DNA from: an uncultured delta proteobacterium
GTDB lineage: Bacteria; Desulfobacterota; RBG-13-43-22
Assembly: GCA_963790475.1 (NCBI GenBank)
Contig: CAWBOS010000012.1
Span: 1 to 64,000, forward strand
Reading direction: 5' to 3'
Length of the DNA: 64,000 nucleotides
In this document: in pieces, positions 45,168-57,107 of the stretch
How positions within the stretch are numbered: position 1 is the first letter of the stretch
Layout of the letters: each line of letters starts with the position of its first letter
Notes under the pieces: generated by a model
Databases searched by the model: none
Told to the model about the DNA's origin: nothing
What the model saw: the letters and a program-made list of their open reading frames with translations, nothing else
Program-made: the position numbers and the translations under genes

Positions 45168-45752
45168 ATGTCTCATAAAATCCTTCTTGTAGATGATGAA
45201 CCTCACGTCACCGAAGCGTTGAAGCGGACTCTTCATAAGGAGCCTTACGAGATCTTGAGTGCCAATTCCGCCAATGAGGCCCTTCAGATTCTGGCCCGCG
45301 AGCCCGTGTCCGTGGTCATCAGCGATGAAAGGATGCCGGGCATGCCGGGGGCCGAGTTTCTGGCTCTTGTCTACCGGGATTATCCGGAAACCATTCGGAT
45401 CATGCTGACCGGGCATGCCAACCTCGACTTGGCCCTGCGGGCCATCAACGAGGGACAAATTTATCGTTTTTTATTGAAGCCCTGCAACGAACAGGAAATC
45501 CGCATTACCCTTCGCCAGGCGATTCAACAAAAAGAGCTGGCAGAAAAGAGCCGGCAGCTTTTACAAAAGGTCAAACAGCAGGACTTGGTCCTGAATCATC
45601 TGGAAAAGGACCATCCCGGAATTACTAAAGTGGAGAGAGATTCCACCGGGACCATCGTTATTGACGACTTTGGGTTTGATTTGGATAGGCTTATCCAGGA
45701 AATTAAAGAAGAATTGTCTGAGCCGATGCCGGTGTCTAATACTCGGCAGTAG
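45168..45752 (+). CDS. Response regulator (receiver plus short C-terminal coil)
   Basis: LLVDDE, ISDERMP, MLTG, LLKP. Confidence 0.9.
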   Translation: MSHKILLVDDEPHVTEALKRTLHKEPYEILSANSANEALQILAREPVSVVISDERMPGMPGAEFLALVYRDYPETIRIMLTGHANLDLALRAINEGQIYRFLLKPCNEQEIRITLRQAIQQKELAEKSRQLLQKVKQQDLVLNHLEKDHPGITKVERDSTGTIVIDDFGFDLDRLIQEIKEELSEPMPVSNTRQ

Positions 45753-45926
45753 TCCTGTATCCCTTTAAGCACAACGCCTCTGGTAAACTTTTGGCGGGCG
45801 TTGTTGCAGCAAAGGTCTTGCCTATAACCTCTTTAAATACCTAAAGTTTTTATTTCGCATCATGGACCTAAGACTGATTCCACCCTTTAAAAAATTCCTG
45901 ACAATTCAATGAAGCTCTTTTTTTTC

Positions 45927-45956
45927 TTGACAAAGAAAGGCTTATCGACTTAAATA
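45927..45956 (+). promoter_or_regulatory. Probable sigma-70 promoter of the aro operon
   Basis: TTGACA at 45927-45932 with TTAAAT/TAAATA 17-18 bp downstream, about 30 bp before the leader ATG. Confidence 0.55.
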
Positions 45957-45987
45957 TAAGCCATTAACGGGAACTCAAAACAAAAAA

Positions 45988-46083
45988 ATGGGTAGCAAAT
46001 TGTTCAATTTCAGTTCCAAATTTTGGTTTTATTTTTATTATTACTACTTCCTACCGGTCTGCCCATCGCTTAGGAGTTCATAG
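45988..46083 (+). CDS. Aromatic-amino-acid attenuator leader peptide (31 aa)
   Basis: MGSKLFNFSSKFWFYFYYYYFLPVCPSLRSS*; ten consecutive aromatic codons at 46021-46050. Confidence 0.85.
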   Translation: MGSKLFNFSSKFWFYFYYYYFLPVCPSLRSS

Positions 46084-46109
46084 AGAAACTTAAAAAAAGA
46101 AAGAAATCA

Positions 46110-46161
46110 AAAAAAGCCATGGGGAGACAGAAAGAGTGCTCCCCATGGCTTTTTTATTTTT
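46110..46161 (+). terminator. Attenuator terminator hairpin
   Basis: AAAAAAGCCATGGGGAG / CTCCCCATGGCTTTTTT; the 5' arm can instead pair with 46057-46071. Confidence 0.88.
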
Positions 46162-46220
46162 GAGAGTTGGCCAAGCCGTGAGCACCGACATCGGCCCTGT
46201 GTCTAAGGAAGGAGTTACCA

Positions 46221-47250
46221 ATGGTGATCGTAATGAAAAAACAGGCTACAGACGAAGAGATAAACAATGTCATCCAATGGATAGAATCCGTGGGCTACCA
46301 GACCCACCCCTCAAGGGGAGTTGCCCAAACCATCATCGGTGTGGTAGGCGACGACCGAGGGAAGGAGCAATTGAAGTCGGTAGAGTATCTGCCCGGGGTG
46401 GAAAAAGCCGTTAGAATTCTGAAGCCCTATAAGCTGGCCAGCAGAGAGGCTAAAACAGGAGACACCATCGTCCGGGTCGGGGATATACAAATCGGCGGTC
46501 CGGAATTTATCGTCATGGCCGGCCCCTGCTCTATCGAGAGTGATGAACAACTCATGGAGAGCGCCTATATTATAAAAAAAGGAGGCGCTCATATCCTGAG
46601 AGGCGGGGCCTACAAACCCCGGACTTCACCCTATAGTTTTCAAGGTCTGGAAGAAGAGGGGCTGAGGATGTTGAAAAAGGTCAGGGATAAAATGGGGACT
46701 CCCGGTGGTCACCGAGGTCATGAATACCACAGAGGTGGAGCTGGTCGAAGAAAACTGCGATATCTTGCAGATCGGGACTCGGAATGTCCAAAATTTTCCT
46801 CTCTTAAAAAAAGTAGGCCAGACCCGAAAGCCGGTCCTTTTAAAGAGGGGCATGATGACTACCATCGAAGAGCTCCTGATGTCCGCCGAATACATTCTTT
46901 CCGAGGGAAACAATCAAGTCATCCTCTGCGAACGGGGGATCCGAACCTTTGAAACCGCCACCCGCAATACCCTGGATTTGAGCGCCGTCCCGGTATTAAA
47001 GGAATTGACACACCTTCCGGTGATTGTCGACCCCAGCCATGCCACCGGCCATTGGAAGTATGTCCTGCCCTTATCCAAAGCCGCCATGGCCGTGGGTGCC
47101 GACGGGTTAATTATTGAAGTCCATCCCCAGCCGGAAAAGGCCCTCTGTGACGGGGCACAATCTTTAAAACCGGAAAAGTTTTACCAATTGATGGAGGAAT
47201 TAAGGATGCTCCAGGGAGTTTTAAGAAAAGAAACAGGAGTCCGGCAATGA
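46221..47250 (+). CDS. aroF: DAHP synthase, type I-beta with N-terminal regulatory domain; frameshift at G run 46694-46697
   Basis: [24 protein letters not shown], then in the second frame [28 protein letters not shown]. Confidence 0.92.
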
Positions 47251-48341
47251 ATCAGATCAAAGTCCAATTGGATTCTCAAATTTCTCATTCTTATAAAATT
47301 CATATCGGCCGGGATATTATCGATCGCGTCGGGGTCCTTTTAAATAAAGGGAATTGGATTAATCGCTATGTCATTATCACCGATTCCCGAGTTAATACTC
47401 TGCACGGGAAAAGGGTATTGGATAGCTTAAGACAGATGGATTTAAAAATTGATTTGATCAGTTTTCCTGCCGGGGAGCCCTCTAAAAATATTCAGACCTG
47501 CCTCCAGTTGGTGGAAAAGCTTATTGCCCTGGGTGTTGACCGGCATACGGCCCTGATTGCCCTGGGAGGAGGGGTGACCGGGGATATGACGGGGTTTATT
47601 GCCTCCATTTATATGAGAGGCCTGCCTTTTTTTCAGCTACCCACGACCCTGATGGCCCAGGTGGACAGCAGCATTGGCGGCAAAACCGGGATTGATATAC
47701 CGGCCGGGAAAAATCTCTTGGGGACCTTCTATCAGCCCCAGGCCGTTTTTATCGACCTGACTTTTCTCCAGACCTTGCCGGACTCTGAATTCAACAACGG
47801 CCTTTCTGAAATCCTGAAACACGGGATCATCGAAGACCCCCAGCTCTTAACCTCCCTTGAGGAAGAGACCCAGGCTGTGCGGAAAAGGGATTTTAAGCTG
47901 CTGGAAAAGATCATCACCAAATCCTGCCGGATCAAAAAAAGAATCGTGGAAATGGACGAGAAGGAAGGGGGCCTGCGCCGCATTCTCAACTTTGGCCATA
48001 CCCTCGGGCATGCCCTGGAATCCGAATCGGGTTATGCCCTCTCTCATGGCCAGGCGGTGGCCATCGGTATGGTCTATGCCGCTACCCTGTCTGAAAAACT
48101 AAATTATTTGCCATCGACGGACCGGGAGCGGATAGAATCCCTAATCAAGGCCTTCGAACTGCCTCATCGCATCCCCAAGGACCTGGAAACGAAAGCCCTG
48201 ATGTCACGACTGACGAAAGACAAGAAAAAAGAAGGGTCACATATTCCCTTCATCCTGTTGAAAAAGATCGGACTCCCTTTCATTAACGGAGACATATCCA
48301 AAACCGTTATCTGGGAAACCGTTGAGGCCCTGAAAGCATGA
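47247..48341 (+). CDS. aroB: 3-dehydroquinate synthase
   Basis: [38 protein letters not shown]. Confidence 0.96.
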
Positions 48342-49417
48342 TAAAGAATTCCATAAAAAAATTAAGAGAAGCCTTAAGAACAAAAGACCAGGAAATTGTT
48401 TCTCTTCTCAATGAACGGGCCGCATTGGCCCTTGAGGTGGGGCGGATTAAGAATGAGAACGGCCGGGAGGTCTATGATCCTTCTCGGGAAAGCCTGGTTT
48501 ATCAGTATCTATCCCAGATCAGCCAGGGACCTCTGCCCGATAAGGCGTTGCGGGATATCTACCGTGAGATTATCTCCGCCTCGCGAGCGCTTCAGGGACC
48601 TATTACCGTGGCCTATTTTGGTCCGGAGGCCTCTTTTACCCACTTGGCCGCCCTGGCCCATTTCGGCCAATCGGCGAGACTTTCACCGCAAACGACTATC
48701 GCCCTGGTCTTTGAACAAGCCGAAAGAGAGAGAAGTGCCTATGGCGTGGTGCCCATTGAAAATTCCGGTGAGGGATCGGTTAAACCAACTTTGGACCGTT
48801 TGATTTCCACCCCTCTTTCTATCCGGGCCGAGGTTTTTTTGAGGATTTCTCATTATCTTCTGGCTTCCCCTGAAAAGATGAAGAAGATCAAAAGGGTCTA
48901 CTCCCATCCCCAGGCCCTCGCTCAATGTCAGGGTTGGCTGGAGAAAAACTATCCTAAGTCCACCTTGCTGAAAGTAGAAAATACGGCCGAAGCTGCCAAA
49001 AAAGTTTTAGAGGACCGAGAGGGAGCGGCCATAGGCAGCTTGCAGGCCGCCCAATTGTATGGACTTAAAATCCTGGCCGACCGGATTGAGGATCACCCTT
49101 TAAACACCACCCGATTCCTCATCCTGGGCAAAGATCAAAGTGAACCTACCGGAAAGGACAAGACCTCCATCCTCTTTGGGACCACCCATGTGCCCGGGGC
49201 CTTGCTTCAGGCCCTGGAACCCTTTGCCCAGGAGGGGCTTAATCTCCTCAAGATTGAGTCCTATCCCTGGCCGGATCGGATGTGGGAATATCTCTTCTTC
49301 GTTGATTTCGCCGGACATAAAGAGGATGAGAAAGTCCAAAGCTGTTTAAAAAAAATCGGCCAGGTTACCCATTATGTCAAAGTCATGGGGTCTTATCCCC
49401 GGGGAGAAACACCTTGA
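48338..49417 (+). CDS. pheA: Chorismate mutase/prephenate dehydratase
   Basis: N-terminal chorismate mutase, PIENS, SHPQALAQC, NTTRF, ACT domain. Confidence 0.95.
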   Translation: MIKNSIKKLREALRTKDQEIVSLLNERAALALEVGRIKNENGREVYDPSRESLVYQYLSQISQGPLPDKALRDIYREIISASRALQGPITVAYFGPEASFTHLAALAHFGQSARLSPQTTIALVFEQAERERSAYGVVPIENSGEGSVKPTLDRLISTPLSIRAEVFLRISHYLLASPEKMKKIKRVYSHPQALAQCQGWLEKNYPKSTLLKVENTAEAAKKVLEDREGAAIGSLQAAQLYGLKILADRIEDHPLNTTRFLILGKDQSEPTGKDKTSILFGTTHVPGALLQALEPFAQEGLNLLKIESYPWPDRMWEYLFFVDFAGHKEDEKVQSCLKKIGQVTHYVKVMGSYPRGETP

Positions 49418-50109
49418 GGATCTGTGTTCCCATTACCTCCACCACGACAGCCGAGGCCTTACACAAGATGGAGGAAGGCTTTGGTCTGGCAGATATTTTA
49501 GAACTGAGGATCGATGGAATCCGAAAAGTTGATTTAGAAAAATTACTGGCTGGCCGCAAAGGGGAACTCATAGTCACCAACCGGGTCAAAGAAGAGGGTG
49601 GGGCTTTTATTGGTGGAGAAAATGAACGGGTGGCCCTTCTAACCAAGGCCGTGGCCCTGGGGAGCGAATACGTGGATCTGGAAATCAGGACCGAAGAAGC
49701 CCTGGTTTTAAAATTGAAGAAAAAAATCGAAGCTTATCAGAGGAAATCCCGATTGATCCTTTCCTATCATAATCTGGAAAGGACACCAAGCCTTAAAGAT
49801 TTAAGAAAGAAAATAGAAGAAGGACACAGGGCCGGAGCGGATATCATCAAGATTGTCCCCCAGGCCCGACAGATGGAAGACAATCTCAAGGTCCTATCCC
49901 TCATCCCCTATGCCCAAAGAAAAGGTCTGCAAATTATAGCCTTTTGCATGGGGGGCCCGGGAAAGATCAGTCGGATCATGGCCCCGCTCCTGGGTTCTTA
50001 TCTGAGTTACGCTTCGTTAACGAAGGGGGAGGAGTCGGCCCCGGGGCAAATGACGATTGGGGAGATCAAAAAGGTTTTCAAAATACTGAATGTTCCGGTG
50101 AGAAAATAA
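49414..50109 (+). CDS. aroD: Type I 3-dehydroquinate dehydratase
   Basis: ELRID, TNR..EEGG, SYHN, ADIIK, MG..G..SR, SAPGQ. Confidence 0.93.
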   Translation: MRICVPITSTTTAEALHKMEEGFGLADILELRIDGIRKVDLEKLLAGRKGELIVTNRVKEEGGAFIGGENERVALLTKAVALGSEYVDLEIRTEEALVLKLKKKIEAYQRKSRLILSYHNLERTPSLKDLRKKIEEGHRAGADIIKIVPQARQMEDNLKVLSLIPYAQRKGLQIIAFCMGGPGKISRIMAPLLGSYLSYASLTKGEESAPGQMTIGEIKKVFKILNVPVRK

Positions 50110-50216
50110 AAAAACGGTTACGGGTTACGCGTTTCGAGTTAGAAGAAAGAGTCTTTTGAGTTATCAATCCACAACCCGTAACTGGCAACCCGCAACAAGA
50201 AAAGAGAAACAAAGGA

Positions 50217-51044
50217 ATGATGTCTTCATCGGATATAAAAATATTCGCCGTTTTCGGAAACCCAATCGCCCACAGTCTTTCACCGCTGATGCATCAGGCC
50301 GCGTTAGACCGATTGGGTCTCAAGGCCCGCTATGTTCCCTTTTGCGTGAAAGACATCGGAAAGGCCGTGGACGGAATCCGGGGCCTGGACATTCAGGGGG
50401 TAAGTGTGACCCTGCCTTTCAAAACGGAGGTCATGAAATATCTGGACGAAGTTGAGGAAAATGCCATTCGGATCGGGGCCGTCAATACCATCCGGAATCA
50501 TCAGGGAAGGTTATGGGATACAATACCGACTGGCTTGGTTTTGTCCTTTCCTTGAAAGAGGGCCTGGAAATCAGAGGGAAAAGATTTGCCGTCCTCGGGG
50601 CCGGGGGTGCGGCCAGAGGCGTTGTTTACGGCCTGATTCAGGAAGGGGCGCTGCCGATTATCCTTAACCGGACCCTTTCCAAAGCAGAGGCCCTGGGAGA
50701 GGAATTCGGCTGCCCATTTTTTCCTTTATCCGAAAAGAAAAAAATTGAAGCGGACTGCCTGATCAATACTACCTCTCTCGGTATGGCCCCGGAGCAAGGG
50801 ATGTCCCCTTTCCCAAAGGGACTTCTTAACCGGTTCCCTTGGGTAGTGGATATCATTTATAATCCCTTACAAACAAAACTACTGAAAGAGGCCGCGGAAG
50901 CAGGATGTAAAACCCTTTCCGGGCTGGGGATGTTTGTTCAGTCAGGGGGCCGAGCAATTGAAGATCTGGACCGGTCTGGAACCCCCCCGGGACTACATGA
51001 AAGAGGTGGTTGCCTCGAAGCTCAAAGAATATGATCGAGATTAA
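50217..51044 (+). CDS. aroE: Shikimate dehydrogenase; two frameshifts (about 50512 and 50940)
   Basis: GNPIAHSLSP, SVTLPFK, GAVNT | GYNTD, GAGGAA, DIIYNP, GLGMFV | QGAEQLKIWTG. Confidence 0.9.
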
Positions 51045-52293
51045 ACCCCTAGGTCAGATCAAGGCCCGGGTCACCATGCCCGGCTCTAAAAGTTACACTC
51101 AGAGGGCCATGATCATGGCCTCCCTGGCCAAAGGAGACTCCCGTCTGCAAGGCCCCCTTATTTCCGAAGATACCGGTTATCTGGCCGAGGCCCTTCGTCT
51201 GCTTGGGGCAAATATGGAGGTCCAAAACGGAGACCTGCTGGTCCAGGGAACTGCAGGGCGAATCAACAATCCACAAAAAGCAATCTATCTGGGGAACAAT
51301 GGCACAGCCCTGCGTTTACTGACCACCGTGGTCTGTCTGGGAAAAGGAGAATTTCTCCTTACCGGTGCCCCCCGTCTTTTGGAAAGACCGGTTCAGCCTT
51401 TGCTGGAGGCCCTGAAGACTCTGGGAGTGAAAGCCATTAGCAAAGGTCAACCTGGATTTCCTCCGGTCCTTATCGAGGCCGATGGTCTTCAAGGCGGCAA
51501 GGTCATTTTGAAAAACATTGAAAGCAGTCAGTATATCTCCTCTCTTTTAATTTCCGCCCCTATGGCCAGGGACGATTTTGCCTTGGAGCTTGAAGGAGCT
51601 ATCCCTTCCCTGCCCTATGTGGAGATGACAATCGCTTTGATGAAACAATTTGGAGTGAAGGTTTCCAGAGAAAATACAACCCGTTTTTTTATAAAAAGCC
51701 GTCAAAAATACCAGGGTATTGATTGCCGGATCGAAGGCGATGTCTCCAGTGCCTCTTACTTTTTTTTAGCCGCCGCCTTGTGCCGGGGGACGATAAAGGT
51801 TCAGCCCATACCCTCCGAAACCCTTCAGGGAGACATCCGCTTTCTCAAGGTCCTGGAAGCGCTCGGATGTACTGTTGTCCGAGGAGATCATTGGGTGGAG
51901 GTTACAGGGAAAAAACTGATTTCAGGAGAATTCGTCTTTGACCTTGGCGATATGCCCGATATGGTCCCTACCCTGGCTATCTTGGCGGCCTGCCGTCCCG
52001 GACGTACGATCATTAAAAATGTCGCCCATCTCAGAATAAAGGAAAGCAACCGTCTGGAGGCCCTGATTCGGGAATTGACCAAAACCGGGATCAAGGCCGA
52101 AGAAACCGAAGACGGTCTAAAAATTGAAGGGGGTAAACCTCAAGGGGCGGAAATCGATACCTATAATGATCACCGGATAGCTATGAGTTTTGCAGTTCTG
52201 GGATTGGTTGTTCCGGGTATTAAAATCAAGGACCCGGATTGTGTAAAGAAATCCTTCCCCGGATTTTGGGAAGAATTGAAGAAACTCTATTAG
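51031..52293 (+). CDS. aroA: EPSP synthase
   Basis: PGSKSYTQR, LGNNGTALR, SSQYISSLL, RIKESNR, DHRIAM, KSFP. Confidence 0.96.
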   Translation: MIEIKPLGQIKARVTMPGSKSYTQRAMIMASLAKGDSRLQGPLISEDTGYLAEALRLLGANMEVQNGDLLVQGTAGRINNPQKAIYLGNNGTALRLLTTVVCLGKGEFLLTGAPRLLERPVQPLLEALKTLGVKAISKGQPGFPPVLIEADGLQGGKVILKNIESSQYISSLLISAPMARDDFALELEGAIPSLPYVEMTIALMKQFGVKVSRENTTRFFIKSRQKYQGIDCRIEGDVSSASYFFLAAALCRGTIKVQPIPSETLQGDIRFLKVLEALGCTVVRGDHWVEVTGKKLISGEFVFDLGDMPDMVPTLAILAACRPGRTIIKNVAHLRIKESNRLEALIRELTKTGIKAEETEDGLKIEGGKPQGAEIDTYNDHRIAMSFAVLGLVVPGIKIKDPDCVKKSFPGFWEELKKLY

Positions 52294-52325
52294 CTTCTAG
52301 CCAAAGATATTTGAAATTTTGAAAG

Positions 52326-52540
52326 GTCCAAGGGGGTCTTATTTTTGGGGGTTGTCCTAAGGGTAACTTATCGCCCTATCCCGGCCCGTCCGGCAAAGTT
52401 TGATTCGAGGCAGGGCCTAAACCTTAGCTTGTTGCGGACATAGGTGAAGGCCTGCTACTGATTTAGTTAAAATATTTGGCCTGGCCCTGAAGCTCATGGC
52501 TTCAGGGTGGACAACCCCCAAAAATAAGACCCCCTTGGAC
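52326..52540. mobile_element. 215-bp MITE-like element with perfect 32-bp terminal inverted repeats
   Basis: GTCCAAGGGGGTCTTATTTTTGGGGGTTGTCC at 52326-52357 and its exact reverse complement at 52509-52540; no coding capacity. Confidence 0.72.
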
Positions 52541-52615
52541 AGGAGACGCCACGAATCATGAAAATAGGTTTCGACGAACGATGAACGACGAACAACGAAG
52601 GTTATTTTCGTATTA

Positions 52616-53242
52616 ATGACAATGAACAACATTATCCTGATAGGTTACCGCTGTACGGGAAAAACCTCTGTCGGGAAACGGCTGGCTGAGAAACTGGAGC
52701 TCCCTTTTTACGACACGGATCCAATGATCACCGACCGTATTGGGAAATCGATCAAGGCCTGGGTGGAGGAAAAGGGATGGGATTCCTTTCGTCAGGAAGA
52801 AAAAGCGGTCATTAAAGAAATTGCCTCCCGGGAACCTGGTGTTATTTCCCTGGGAGGGGGCGCGGTGATGGATCCTGAAAACAGGGAAACATTAAGACCA
52901 ATGGGCTTGATCGTCTGGCTGACCGCCGATGTCGGCACCCTCTTGACCAGAATGAAAACCGATCCCCATACTATCGACAACCGCCCTCACCTGTCAGACA
53001 AGGATTGGGAAAATGAAACCCGGGAAATCCTGACCCGGCGATCGCCGATCTACCGGCAATCATCTGATTTTTCCATAGACACGGAAGGGAAAACGGTCGA
53101 ATCCATTGCCGAAGAACTGGTTGCTCTTGTCAAGAGACAAGGCATCGGGGGCAAAAAACTTGAGGCCACAAACCCAACAAACTCGATGAACACAATGAAC
53201 CGAACAGACCAAACTGACTGGAAAGACGAAACGACTAAATAA
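52616..53242 (+). CDS. aroK: Shikimate kinase (C-terminal tail encoded by microrepeats)
   Basis: GYRCTGKT, DTD, FRQEE, LGGG, RP. Confidence 0.93.
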   Translation: MTMNNIILIGYRCTGKTSVGKRLAEKLELPFYDTDPMITDRIGKSIKAWVEEKGWDSFRQEEKAVIKEIASREPGVISLGGGAVMDPENRETLRPMGLIVWLTADVGTLLTRMKTDPHTIDNRPHLSDKDWENETREILTRRSPIYRQSSDFSIDTEGKTVESIAEELVALVKRQGIGGKKLEATNPTNSMNTMNRTDQTDWKDETTK

Positions 53243-53283
53243 CCAAATAGACCAAACAGACATGAAAGGCCAGAGGAGCGATT

Positions 53284-54339
53284 ATGTCCGGCAATTCAAC
53301 AGGGGTTTTATTTAAGGTTACGACTTGGGGGGAATCTCACGGGCCGGGTTTGGGTGCGGTAGTGGAGGGGTGCCCGCCTTTGATCCCGTTGACCGAGGAA
53401 GACATTCAGAAAGATTTGAAAAGGAGAAAGCCCGGACAAATTCAAAGCGCTTCTTCCCGAAAGGAAGATGATCAGGTGGAGATCCTTTCCGGGGTCTTTG
53501 AAGGCCGGACCACCGGAACCCCCATTGCCCTGCTCATCCGCAATAAAGATGCCGATAGCTCCGCCTATGATGAACTGAAAGATATTTTCCGCCCCGGTCA
53601 TGGGGATCTGACCTATTATAAAAAATACGGGGTCAGGGATCACCGGGGAGGCGGCCGGGCTTCGGGAAGGGAAACGGCGGCCCGCGTAGCGGCCGGGGCC
53701 ATTGCCAAAAAAATCCTGGCCCGGGAAAATATTGAAGTCCTGGCTTATACCCTGGAATTAGGCGGCATCAATGCCGAAATAATTTCCCTTGAGGCCACTT
53801 CCCAAAACACCCTTAGCTGTCCCGATCCTCAGGCGGCCTTAAAAATGGAAGCAAAGTTACGAGAGACCGCCGAGAAAGGGGATTCGCTGGGAGGGATTGT
53901 GGAAATCCTGGTCCGTGGATGCCCTCCGGGTCTGGGGGAACCGGTCTTTGATAAAATGGACGCCGATCTGGCCAAGGCCTTGATGAGCATCGGATCGATC
54001 AAAGGGGTGGAAATCGGTGCCGGATTTAAGGCCGCCCGGATGACCGGGTCCGAGTGTAACGATCCCATCACCCCTGACTGCTTTTTAACCAACCATGCCG
54101 GCGGGATACTGGCCGGTATAACCAATGGGGATGATCTGGTTATCCGGGTGGCTTGCAAACCCATAGCTTCCATCAGGAAAGAGCAGAAAACCATCGATCT
54201 TTCAGGGAAGCCGGTCTCCTTAGCGATCAAAGGCCGACATGATGTTTCAGTCATACCCCGCATCATCCCCGTATGCGAAGCCATGGTCAGCCTGGTGTTG
54301 GTCGATCACCTGTTAAGACAAAAGGCGATAGTCCAATGA
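53284..54339 (+). CDS. aroC: Chorismate synthase
   Basis: TWGESHG, RPGHGD, GGRASGRET, GRHD. Confidence 0.97.
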   Translation: MSGNSTGVLFKVTTWGESHGPGLGAVVEGCPPLIPLTEEDIQKDLKRRKPGQIQSASSRKEDDQVEILSGVFEGRTTGTPIALLIRNKDADSSAYDELKDIFRPGHGDLTYYKKYGVRDHRGGGRASGRETAARVAAGAIAKKILARENIEVLAYTLELGGINAEIISLEATSQNTLSCPDPQAALKMEAKLRETAEKGDSLGGIVEILVRGCPPGLGEPVFDKMDADLAKALMSIGSIKGVEIGAGFKAARMTGSECNDPITPDCFLTNHAGGILAGITNGDDLVIRVACKPIASIRKEQKTIDLSGKPVSLAIKGRHDVSVIPRIIPVCEAMVSLVLVDHLLRQKAIVQ

Positions 54340-55109
54340 AAAAACATCAGATCGGTATTATCGGCGGGACCGGCGGTATAGGAAAATGGTTTGCCCGTTT
54401 TTTTCAGAATGAAGGTTTCAAGGTCCAGATCTCCGGAAGAAAAACCGGACTGGACATTCCCACCTTGGCCCGGGAATGTCCCATCGTGATCGTCAGTGTT
54501 CCCATCAAGGTGACCTGCCAGGTAATTGAACAGGTAGGGCCTTTGATGCCGGCCGAATCCCTGTTGATGGACCTGACCTCTCTCAAGGAAGAACCGGTTA
54601 AAACCATGCTCAAATACTCTCGGTCCGAGGTCATCGGTCTGCACCCCCTGTTCGGCCCTGAAATTAAGGCCCTGACCGGACATAATATTGTCATCTGCCC
54701 GGCCAGGGGGCAGAAATGGCTCCCCCGGATAAAGGCTGTTTTTATAAAAAACCAAGCCCGGATTATCGAGACCACCCCTGAGCGACACGATGAATGGATG
54801 GCCCTGGTCCAGGTTTTGAATCATCTGAATTCCATCACCATGGGGCTGGCCCTGAAGCGGTCCGGTTTTGATCTAAAGGAACTCAATCCGGTGTCCACAC
54901 CGGCCTTCGATGCCAAGATGGATATTCTTAAAAAAATCTTTGGACCTAATTCAGGACTTTACGCCCAAATCATCACCCAGAACCCCCATATCGACCGGGT
55001 CTTCAAGGATTATCAGCAAAGTCTTTCTGAACTGAAAAAATGGATTGACCGGAAGGATAGCGAAGGGCTCCAAAAACGGATTGAGGGCACAAAACTTTTT
55101 TCACAGTAA
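54336..55109 (+). CDS. tyrA: Prephenate/arogenate dehydrogenase
   Basis: IIGGTGGIG, DLTSLK, HPLFGP, HDEWMA; ATG overlaps the aroC stop. Confidence 0.92.
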   Translation: MKKHQIGIIGGTGGIGKWFARFFQNEGFKVQISGRKTGLDIPTLARECPIVIVSVPIKVTCQVIEQVGPLMPAESLLMDLTSLKEEPVKTMLKYSRSEVIGLHPLFGPEIKALTGHNIVICPARGQKWLPRIKAVFIKNQARIIETTPERHDEWMALVQVLNHLNSITMGLALKRSGFDLKELNPVSTPAFDAKMDILKKIFGPNSGLYAQIITQNPHIDRVFKDYQQSLSELKKWIDRKDSEGLQKRIEGTKLFSQ

Positions 55110-55170
55110 ACGATCATGCTTCTGGAAGCGACACGAAGCATGAAAATTTTGTATAACCGGTGAGTTAAGT

Positions 55171-55262
55171 CGTCATTCCGGTCCCGCATTAGGTGCGGGA
55201 TAGACTCCAGCCGGAATCTAGGCTGAAAAACCTCTGGATGCCGGATCGAATCCGGCATGACG
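55171..55262. repeat. REP-like palindromic extragenic repeat
   Basis: CGTCATTCCGG...CCGGAATC...GATGCCGGATCGAATCCGGCATGACG nested hairpins. Confidence 0.65.
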
Positions 55263-55321
55263 GATAAACAACAAGCCTGGAGATTAATCCAGGAGATTTT
55301 CGTATAAAAAGGTAATAACTT

Positions 55322-56350
55322 ATGAGCTTCAATTATATTCGAGAAGTATCGACTCCTCAGGAGATCCTGGCGGCCATCCCGCTCTCTCAGGACCTGTCTT
55401 TGATCAAGAAAGCGCGGGATCAGGAGATCATGGCCGTCTTTACCAGGGAAAGCAAAAAGTTTCTGCTCATCATCGGCCCCTGTTCGGCCCACGATGAAGA
55501 TGCGGTTTGCGATTACATAACCAGGTTGGCCCGGGTGCAGGCTGAGGTCCAGGACAGGATCATCATTATCCCGCGAATCTATACCAATAAGCCCCGCACC
55601 AATGGTATGGGATACAAAGGGATGGTTCATCAGCCGGATCCGCTAAAAGCGCCTAATATTGTCGAGGGGATTCAGGCCATCAGGAGAATGCACATCCGCG
55701 CCCTCCGGGAATCAAACCTTCCCGCGGCCGACGAAATGCTCTATCCCGGAAACTACCCTTATCTCGAAGACGTCTTAAGTTATGTGGCCGTGGGGGCCCG
55801 TTCGGTGGAGAATCAGGCCCATCGTTTGACCTGCAGCGGTCTTGAAGTACCAGTGGGCATGAAAAATCCGACTTCCGGAGAACTCGAAGTGACTCTTAAT
55901 TCCATTCAGGCCTCTCAAGCCTCCCATGTATTCAACTATAATGGTTGGGAAGTCAAGACCACCGGCAATCCCCTGACCCATGCCGTACTCCGTGGTGCGG
56001 TGGATCACTCTAAACTGGCAGTCCCCAATTACCATTTCGAGGATCTGAACCTTTTTGCCAAGGCCTACCAGAAGAGGGAACTGCTCAACCCGACGATTAT
56101 CGTGGACACCAACCATGCCAATTCCAACAAAAAATTCGCCGAACAACCCCGCATCGCCAAAGAGGTCTTGCACAGTCGCCGTCACTCCACCCTGCTCAAG
56201 GACCTGGTTCGGGGCTTGATGATTGAGAGTTTTATTGAGGAAGGGTCGCAGCCGGCAACTGGCACCGTGTATGGAAAATCCATCACCGACCCCTGCCTGG
56301 GGTGGAAGGACAGCGAAAAGCTGATTCGTGATCTGGCCGGGATGTTGTAG
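55322..56350 (+). CDS. DAHP synthase, type I-alpha (AroF/G/H family)
   Basis: IGPCSAH, RIYTNKPRT, VGARS, GMKN, DTNHANS, GLMIES, YGKSITDPCLGW. Confidence 0.94.
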   Translation: MSFNYIREVSTPQEILAAIPLSQDLSLIKKARDQEIMAVFTRESKKFLLIIGPCSAHDEDAVCDYITRLARVQAEVQDRIIIIPRIYTNKPRTNGMGYKGMVHQPDPLKAPNIVEGIQAIRRMHIRALRESNLPAADEMLYPGNYPYLEDVLSYVAVGARSVENQAHRLTCSGLEVPVGMKNPTSGELEVTLNSIQASQASHVFNYNGWEVKTTGNPLTHAVLRGAVDHSKLAVPNYHFEDLNLFAKAYQKRELLNPTIIVDTNHANSNKKFAEQPRIAKEVLHSRRHSTLLKDLVRGLMIESFIEEGSQPATGTVYGKSITDPCLGWKDSEKLIRDLAGML

Positions 56351-56400
56351 GCCGAGTTTCAGGAAAGAAATTGCAGATATTGGAAGGTGCTGAATTAATC

Positions 56401-57107
56401 ATGGAAACATACGCCATGACCCACCCAGGGTTGAGAAGAAAAGAAAACCAGGATCGATATTTTATCCGGGAATTTGAAGACCAAACCGTTCTATCGGCCG
56501 TGGCTGACGGCATGGGTGGCGAGGCGGGTGGCGGATTGGCCGCCCAGACAGCCATTGAGGCCTTCAAAGATTTTAATACCAACTTGGCCAATGTTGAAGA
56601 CTCATTTGCTGCTGTCTTCCAGGTCGCGGACCGAGGATCAGGGAAGAAATCAGAAAGGGTCCCCAATTGGAAGGAATGGGTACGACCCTGACCTCGGCCT
56701 ATTTAAAAAAAGGGGAAATCCATTGGGCCCATGTAGGCGACAGCCGGCTTTATCTCTTCCGGGCCGGGGGGCTGACTCAAGTTACGGAAGACCATACCTT
56801 CGTAACTCGGCTGGTCAAAGAAGGAGCGATAACCAAAGATCAGGCCAGGGTCCATCCCCTGCAAAATATTTTAATTAACTGTCTCGGATGCAAGCCGATG
56901 ATAATGAGCTCCGGCAGATTCAAGATTCAAAATAAAGATTTGGTGCTCCTTTGCACGGATGGGCTTTATCACCAAGTAAGAGACGAGGAATTAGTATCCA
57001 TACTGATCAAAAAAATCAGCATCAAGGAGAAGCTTGAGGGCCTCCTTCAGACCGCCCTGGAGGCTGGGGGGTGGGACAACATCACCCTGGTGGGAGTAAC
57101 GATTTAA
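56401..57107 (+). CDS. Stp1/PrpC-type PP2C phosphatase; frameshift near 56632
   Basis: G..R..NQD, VADGMGG | GMGTT, HVGDSR, TEDH, LCTDGL, GGWDNIT. Confidence 0.88.

Follow-up and report, generated by a model that had tools for sequence, protein, structure and literature searches.

The 64,000-nucleotide stretch of DNA analyzed here (the window) carries on its plus strand a large operon for aromatic amino acid biosynthesis, with a short leader open reading frame (ORF) at its 5' end. By NCBIfam assignment, the genes 3' of the leader follow the order aroF-aroB-pheA-aroD-aroE-aroA-aroK-aroC-tyrA-aroG, all on the plus strand, so that the aro operon which the first-pass annotation had placed here is a ten-gene supraoperon. 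The first gene, aroF (46221-47250), encodes a type I-beta DAHP synthase (DAHPS) with an N-terminal ferredoxin-like domain and is preceded by a GGAG resembling a Shine-Dalgarno (SD) sequence (46211-46214, recognized by eye). A one-base insertion near 46698-46699 breaks aroF, as assembled, into an ORF at 46221-46952 and another at 46705-47250. The rest of the operon occupies 47247-56350 and consists of aroB, pheA (chorismate mutase/prephenate dehydratase), aroD, aroE, aroA, aroK, aroC, tyrA and, as the last gene, a second DAHPS of type I-alpha; aroE is split by a one-base deletion near 50512/50513. The complete common pathway is present together with pheA and tyrA, and the aro cluster contains no trp genes. 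The 5' neighbor of the leader is a response-regulator gene, which ends at 45752.

A putative promoter of the leader and the aro genes can be recognized by eye. The hexamer TTGACA at 45927-45932 (plus strand), with a run of T just 5' of it, is the putative -35 element, and TTAAAT at 45950-45955, at a spacing of 17 nt, would be the -10 element. The sequence CTTGACAA is invariant in all six members of an alignment of the window with its five closest relatives (alignment A5, loci L001-L005), and the relatives have TTATAA, TTTAAT, TTAAAT or TTATCC at the spacing of the -10 element. A consensus promoter scan does not list this promoter because its -10 hexamer lacks an A at position 2. Transcription would start about 25 nt 5' of the leader AUG if this promoter is used.

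The leader ORF (45988-46083, plus strand) comprises 31 codons, translated as MGSKLFNFSSKFWFYFYYYYFLPVCPSLRSS, and the stop codon TAG (46081-46083). Codons 12 to 21 (46021-46050) form an unbroken run of ten aromatic codons, FWFYFYYYYF, made up of four Phe, five Tyr and one Trp, and two further Phe codons lie 5' of the run; the composition given by the first-pass annotation is exact. This is the sole aromatic run of more than five codons in all six frames of the window, where the next longest, of five codons, occurs twice. When the window was simulated 200 times with a first-order Markov model, the longest aromatic run reached 4-6 codons, and when the 468-nt intergenic spacer was shuffled 2000 times it reached 2-5 codons. 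A chance ORF, or a by-product of an A+T-rich spacer, is rejected because the ten-codon run exceeds all of these simulations and shuffles.

Alternative RNA structures of the leader

The RNA that surrounds and follows the leader stop codon can fold in two ways. Region 3 (46110-46129, plus strand) is the 5' arm of a terminator, and region 4 (46137-46161) contains the 3' arm, which extends to 46155, and the U-tract (46150-46161). In the G+C part of the stem 46116-46126 are paired with 46139-46149, and A:U pairs lengthen the helix; in the fold of 45975-46165 the result is a long hairpin followed by UUUUUUAUUUUU. The hairpin alone has a free energy of -30.6 kcal/mol (z = -7.3), and none of 200 shuffled sequences is as stable, which bears out the proposal of a strong terminator after the leader. 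A simple terminator scan returned no sites, apparently because the loop region 46127-46138 exceeds the 3-8 nt limit of the scan.

The alternative partner of the terminator 5' arm is region 2, GUCUGCCCAUCGCUU (46057-46071, plus strand), which lies within the last codons of the leader. Pairing of 46057-46071 with 46114-46128, as suggested by the first-pass annotation, involves 13 of the 15 positions with two mismatches. This antiterminator is the minimum free energy structure of the nascent RNA 46051-46137 (-19 kcal/mol, z = -2.8, a value equaled by 4 of 200 shuffles). When the alternatives were folded, a check which that annotation had proposed, both the terminator and the antiterminator were found to form and to be mutually exclusive. 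At -19 to -21 kcal/mol against -30.6 kcal/mol, the antiterminator is the weaker of the two and is therefore dependent on kinetics.

Region 1, AUGGGUAG (45988-45995, plus strand), is the start codon with the next 5 nt and is complementary to a part of region 2. It can form eight pairs, one of them G-U, with CUGCCCAU (46059-46066), and this helix is present in the minimum free energy structure. The proposed pairing of the start codon therefore stands as far as complementarity is concerned, but its stability does not exceed that of shuffled sequences (z = +1.0). In 14 relatives 78.6% of the cells of the helix are paired, compared with 25-45% in slid controls, although only one pair is changed on both sides and covariation is thus almost absent. 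Because the fold is no better than the shuffles, the region 1:2 helix is regarded as possible.

Conservation of the leader and its switch

A single scan of species-representative genomes, in which the query was the N-terminal 160 residues of the DAHPS of the window, gave 80 related loci. A leader was recorded where at least 7 of 10 codons in a 10-codon window were aromatic within the 450 nt 5' of the DAHPS gene. By this measure an aromatic-rich leader is present in 38 of the 80 loci at a position matching that in the window, 185-408 nt ahead of the DAHPS start; 37 of the 38 lie within 185-245 nt and the exception, L072, lies at 408 nt. The homologous leaders that the first-pass annotation had recommended looking for are thus present in relatives, with the aromatic tract conserved as a class. 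Ten further loci reach 6 of 10 and count as weaker candidates, so that 48 candidates have at least 6 of 10. The 81 upstream regions of 450 nt, read on one strand, contain 39 windows with at least 7 of 10 aromatic codons; as a control, 45 such windows occur on both strands of the other ~1.23 Mb, mostly in A+T-rich loci.

The closest carriers (L001-L005, DAHPS 84-94% identical) are labelled as Thermodesulfobacteriota or Deltaproteobacteria metagenome-assembled genomes, and L006-L013 are of Syntrophales type. The other carriers are 17 loci of Geobacteraceae, Geomonas or Desulfuromonadaceae type and eight of Methylomirabilota or Rokuibacteriota type. Nothing comparable was found upstream in most of the other 42 loci (Firmicutes, Hydrogenedentota, Bacteroidota and others). 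Examples of the leader peptides are MNSNRFYIAFSFYFWFGFYFRPSARVEV in Geobacteraceae, ..FWFSYYYIYGQVCPSLRRT in Syntrophales and ..GWRFYFFYFPRVCPPALKR in Methylomirabilia. A terminator follows the leader in 43 of the 48 candidates, and the element is always directly 5' of the DAHPS gene on the same strand. In L001-L013 the gene order is that of the window as far as the contigs reach (aroB in 13 of 13, tyrA in 10 of 13), whereas the leaders of Geobacterales, Methylomirabilota and Rokuibacteriota are followed by a DAHPS gene that stands alone or is duplicated. The leader is therefore tied to the DAHPS gene, and the supraoperon is a lineage-specific extension.

The manner in which these sequences vary bears on whether the ORF is translated. 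In an alignment of the window with L001-L013 (alignment A1), all 32 internal gap runs in the columns of the leader ORF are multiples of three, compared with 11 of 49 outside it, and the aromatic tract is kept by amino acid class, with F, Y and W interchanging, and not by nucleotide. Translation of the leader ORF is predicted from this pattern of gaps, a strong evolutionary signal of coding. However, the region 5' of the leader AUG in the window is A-rich and has no SD-like sequence, and in the family such a sequence is found at -16 to -7 in only 11 of 39 leaders. The gap pattern and the conservation by amino acid class stand against the reading in which the ORF is incidental and what is conserved is RNA that is not translated, for example a riboswitch, a relative of the T-box or a leader bound by a protein. 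That reading could draw on the lack of an SD-like sequence before the AUG and on the listing of the Geobacter element among 'possible promoters and riboswitches' in the accessible part of Aklujkar et al. 2009 (PMC2700814). A search of 45500-46600 against Rfam gave 23 matches at E <= 10, with no T-box or riboswitch among them, and the T-box was rejected for this reason. The Phe leader, RF01859, scored 28.5 bits (E = 0.022), below its gathering score of 55; the Trp leader, RF00513, was not listed, and the remaining matches are chance hits. At gathering thresholds nothing was found at the leaders of seven related loci, T-boxes and riboswitches included. A non-translated element is, on this evidence, highly improbable.

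Still harder to credit is a second reading, namely that a small hydrophobic or aromatic peptide with a function of its own is the product of the ORF, the hairpin being merely the terminator of this ORF or of the response-regulator gene. The leader peptide is indeed hydrophobic, and there is one weak Pfam match, to 'Small hydrophobic protein', at 14.7 bits against a cutoff of 27. A search of NCBIfam and Pfam with four leader peptides gave no family above threshold, however, and an exact look-up of eight found none of them in a collection of ~15 billion proteins. Only the composition of the peptide is conserved, not its sequence, and the position of the element, always in front of a DAHPS gene, is not that expected from this reading. 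A terminator belonging to the upstream response-regulator gene was rejected since the element travels with the DAHPS gene in 38 loci.

Region 2 contains a short conserved word. The core GTCTGCC is invariant in all 32 sequences of a wider alignment (alignment A4), and the exact word is present in 36 of the 48 candidates and absent from 12. The core, GUCUGCC in the RNA, is read in frame 0 at 18 loci, in frame 2 at 15 (Geobacterales, giving RPSA..) and in frame 1 at three (Rokuibacteriota type, giving RLPG..). As the core occurs in all three frames across clades, it is conserved as RNA and not as peptide, and the C-terminal VCPSL.., which resembles a peptide motif, was rejected as such on the same grounds; with it goes the apparent conserved end of a functional peptide. 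As judged from the alignments, the constraint on the aromatic tract is at the level of codons and that on the core at the level of RNA. Among the 18 frame-0 leaders, 16 have a core that starts 26 nt before the end of the stop codon, and in the window the last base of the TAG is likewise 26 nt after the first base of region 2. With this offset a terminating ribosome would sit on the core.

Both helices of the switch are preserved in the relatives. Pairing of the terminator helix in 14 close relatives amounts to 86%, compared with 41-55% in slid controls, and five pairs are changed on both sides; the antiterminator is 85% paired, compared with 29-47%, with three pairs changed on both sides. Across 32 sequences from three clades the antiterminator remains 80.7% paired (26-45% in slid controls). 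In these 32 sequences 35 cells are changed on both sides against 15.7 in shuffles, and none of 500 shuffles reaches 35. RNAalifold applied to the 32-sequence alignment recovers five core antiterminator pairs only. The terminator 3' arms look misaligned across clades, and the terminators were therefore judged locus by locus.

A duplex test was made on the 43 terminator-bearing candidates individually. In 28 of them the terminator 5' arm pairs best with a segment of the final 40 nt of the leader ORF (z <= -3 relative to shuffles), and in the other 15 the test is weak (z > -3). Four of these 15 (L003, L008, L012 and L037) have a partner in this position, with z between -2.1 and -2.8, and L043 and L078 perform poorly. 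In the remaining nine, of Methylomirabilota type, the arm pairs best with a segment beyond the stop codon (eight loci) or across it (L044). Folding of two loci, L017 and L052, places the GUCUGCCC:GGGCAGAC helix in a separate hairpin. The folds of these two loci suggest that in leaders of Methylomirabilota type a separate hairpin may relay, by way of one more segment, to the terminator.

A covariance model, R1, was built from the 32-sequence alignment with the antiterminator as its structure. In the window, which is itself among the training sequences, it has one match, at 46005-46161 with 121.4 bits. Three loci outside the training set are also detected, namely the Geomonas loci L041 and L043, at 52-55 bits, and L020, at 37 bits (E = 6e-4), with E values from 3.7e-07 to 6e-4. 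The model has the spacing of the Desulfobacterota type and misses the leaders of Methylomirabilota type, except for L017 at E = 0.3. The features that define the family, an aromatic-rich ORF, a switch core of the form GUCUGCC:GGG(N)(R)GA(Y) and a terminator, all immediately 5' of a type I-beta DAHPS gene, are found in the window.

Proposed mechanism and the amino acids sensed

The leader ORF with its regulatory codons, the terminator and the mutually exclusive antiterminator have the geometry of an attenuator, as the first-pass annotation had recognized, and the comparative evidence agrees with it. Very probably, the element in the window is a classical ribosome-mediated attenuator, in which the supply of aromatic aminoacyl-tRNA controls transcription of the operon. 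Counting against it are the lack of an SD-like sequence before the leader AUG and the frameshifts of aroF and aroE in this assembly. The sequence of events may be envisaged as follows. A ribosome would translate the 31-codon leader while RNA polymerase moves ahead of it. When Phe-, Tyr- and Trp-tRNA are all ample, the ribosome would reach the TAG at 46081-46083 and either cover region 2 or be just off it. With region 2 masked, regions 3 and 4 would pair, and the terminator with its U-tract would halt transcription ahead of aroF.

When any of the three charged tRNAs is scarce, the ribosome would stall within 46021-46050. A stall on approximately the first seven or eight aromatic codons, the Trp codon included, would leave region 2 exposed. 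Region 2 would then capture the newly made 5' arm of the terminator, the terminator would not form, and RNA polymerase would read through into aroF and onwards to aroG. Since the usual footprint of a ribosome reaches ~12-15 nt beyond the A site, stalling at the final two or three aromatic codons would probably cover a part of region 2. If no ribosome is loaded, region 1 could pair with region 2, and termination would again be favored. The ORF, the aromatic run, the two alternative helices with their conservation and the coding constraint are shown by the sequences, and in this description we infer the ribosome footprints, the timing, the promoter and the identity of the amino acids that regulate.

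Sensing of Trp in addition to Phe and Tyr is plausible from the codon content. The Trp codon is kept in 36 of the 39 leaders with at least 7 of 10 aromatic codons, which argues for selection. It is also possible, though rather unlikely, that the attenuator effectively senses Phe, Tyr or both only, and that the lone Trp codon has no regulatory weight, so that the device does not integrate three inputs. The leader of the window, after all, has six Phe and five Tyr codons and just one for Trp; the operon includes pheA and tyrA and lacks trp genes; and Trp is absent from three of the 39 strong leaders (L010, L013 and L068). In the Corynebacterium glutamicum aroR leader, moreover, the one analogue that has been tested, the presence of a Tyr codon did not guarantee a response to Tyr, according to the part of PMC11802643 available to us. 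Against this reading, TGG is kept across clades while the neighboring codons vary, it stands early in the run, where a stall would free region 2, and Trp synthesis is also fed by DAHPS.

Relation to known attenuators

The mechanism itself is that of the textbook, and the understanding of attenuation is unchanged by it. The Escherichia coli leaders pheL (of pheA) and trpL, represented in Rfam by RF01859 and RF00513, follow the same logic as the window: codons for the end product stand in a row, a terminator comes after them, and its 5' arm is also used by an antiterminator. They differ in that each senses a single amino acid; furthermore, region 1 of the window overlaps the start codon and not the end of the ORF. 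Leaders that respond to several end products of a branched pathway are equally well known, as in ilvGMEDA (Ile, Leu and Val) and thr (Thr and Ile). These resemble the window in that one leader serves several end products, but the pathways and amino acids are different, and we know of no sequence relationship between them and the window.

The closest precedent in function is the aroR leader, which lies 5' of the aroF (DAHPS) operon of C. glutamicum and contains Phe-Tyr-Phe (Neshat et al. 2014, as cited in PMC11802643). In the accessible text of that review, read-through increases under Phe limitation and Tyr availability has no effect. Like the element in the window, aroR is a leader-peptide attenuator with mixed aromatic codons that controls the first enzyme of the shikimate pathway, so the earlier statement that a single aromatic amino acid is what such leaders normally sense makes the window look more novel than it is. 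The two also differ: the host is an actinobacterium and aroR has three regulatory codons with no Trp, whereas the window has a ten-codon run with Trp ahead of a ten-gene supraoperon. Another small ORF, uORFC-13-1, is located 5' of aroF in Acholeplasma beside an intrinsic terminator and has been proposed as a sensor of Phe incorporation (Brewer et al. 2021; PMC8632094). It shares with the window the arrangement of an upstream ORF and an intrinsic terminator 5' of a DAHPS gene; going by the available part of that description, it belongs to another phylum, responds to Phe only and is regarded by its authors as a separate motif.

A full-text literature search, beyond whose reach Lopatovskaya et al. 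2010 and Vitreschak et al. 2004 lay, returned no description of a Phe/Tyr/Trp leader 5' of DAHPS in these phyla, and no such leader is described in the accessible portions of PMC545781, PMC1173090, PMC1262725, PMC4833913, PMC11109978 and PMC4007540. The attenuator of the window is well supported; what is new is a widespread, uncatalogued family, for which the searches described above gave no entry in Rfam, Pfam or NCBIfam, and the interest lies mainly at the level of the family. It is one that Rfam and gene callers have missed. It also offers a clean natural case in which an RNA structure has been conserved whatever the frame of the ORF overlapping it.

A broader reading appears to us evenly balanced between being right and being wrong. 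The leaders would constitute an old attenuator family that spans Syntrophales-like Thermodesulfobacteriota, Geobacterales, Methylomirabilota and Rokuibacteriota and was never described as such. Each member would act as a three-input OR gate, in which shortage of Phe, Tyr or Trp opens the entry to the shikimate pathway, and one RNA would replace the three separately regulated DAHPS isoenzymes of enterobacteria. The GUCUGCC:GGGCAGAC core would have been kept while the leader ORF drifted through three frames, and the wiring would differ by clade, the core pairing directly with the terminator arm in Desulfobacterota and acting through an extra relay hairpin in Methylomirabilota. Quite apart from this broader reading, attenuation would explain how one small device of RNA and ribosome could control the committed step in organisms with few known regulators of the aromatic pathway. 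In the lineage of the window the same device would cover the whole common pathway and the Phe and Tyr branches.

In Geobacteraceae a part of this family has probably been noticed before. A conserved element 5' of aroG-2 (Gmet_0346 = GSU3142), designated Gmet_R0069 = GSUR082, was reported by Aklujkar et al. 2009 (PMC2700814), where it is a short RNA element, identified by prediction, which 'may participate in regulation'; the accessible text mentions no leader peptide, terminator or mechanism for it. Like the leaders described here, it lies 5' of a Thermotoga-type DAHPS gene in Geobacteraceae, and from the same position of the leaders in other Geobacteraceae it is likely to be the same element. 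The 17 loci of Geobacteraceae or Desulfuromonadaceae type share the GUCUGCC:GGGCAGAC switch core with the window, the exact GTCTGCC being present in 15 of them; in Geobacter the leader precedes a single gene and not a supraoperon. If the identity holds, attenuation would supply a mechanism for a conserved Geobacter element that has been without interpretation since 2009. The family might also provide a ready-made biosensor of aromatic amino acids for Geobacter engineering.

A conserved AGGAG(G) before the leader stop codon

Shortly upstream of the stop codon of the aromatic leader, the window carries the word AGGAG(G) (46073-46077), which in alignment A1, containing the window and the related DAHP synthase loci L001-L013, includes columns G100, G101 and A102. 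The word is invariant or almost invariant across 14 relatives. It could be a Shine-Dalgarno-like pause site that keeps the ribosome over region 2, the 5' strand of the antiterminator (46057-46071). The same positioning of the ribosome could instead be due to rare arginine codons (AGG AGG). Alternatively, AGGAG(G) could pair with the CUCC of the terminator 3' arm.

Variation among related loci

In many relatives, the first terminator is followed by another strong hairpin and a T-run. This is the case in L007, L009, L010, L012 and L013, and in Geobacteraceae loci such as L021, L024, L026, L028 and L029. The counterpart in the window, at about 46170-46197, is weak. The second hairpin may represent a tandem terminator or an additional regulatory layer.

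Judging from the folds of two loci, L017 and L052, leaders of the Methylomirabilota type appear to have the same family core wired differently. The conserved GUCUGCCC:GGGCAGAC helix stands as a hairpin of its own (L017, 4480-4625; L052, 9780-9915), and in both loci an extra segment on its 3' side is able to pair with the terminator arm.

The Geobacteraceae loci, when read by eye, have a conserved TATGAT or TGTGAT word close to the leader start, 13-19 nt before its ATG (for example, L027, L045 and L055), and the same reading found no Shine-Dalgarno sequence at these leader starts. If the word is a -10 box, the Geobacteraceae leader mRNAs would be almost leaderless.

The F/Y/W leader is absent from the Firmicutes-type loci. 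About 1.1 kb past the DAHP synthase start, two of these contain a frame rich in Trp, NYWRWSYWWF (L053, 11102-11131; L059, 11028-11057), and in a MAG of the Halanaerobiaceae the frame KWGWIWYHYY precedes the DAHP synthase gene (L040, 369-452). The frames of all three loci may be unrelated leaders of the Trp type.

Organization of the aro operon and split genes

The string of aro genes starts with a type I-beta DAHP synthase and ends with a second, type I-alpha (AroF/G/H-like) enzyme (55322-56350), which is preceded by a 212-nt spacer (55110-55321) and is also found in L002-L005. The aroA-aroK spacer inside the operon is unusually long, about 320 nt (52294-52615).

Three genes lying in a stretch of about 11 kb are apparently split by single-base indels. 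The aroF gene is broken at about 46698-46699 by one extra base compared to L001-L004, and aroE, broken at about 50512/50513, has one base fewer than L002-L004. The third, a PP2C-like gene (56371-57107), consists of two overlapping ORFs, one matching the N-terminal and the other the C-terminal part of PP2C. The counterparts of these genes are unbroken in the relatives, and the three breaks look more like assembly indel errors than like gene decay.
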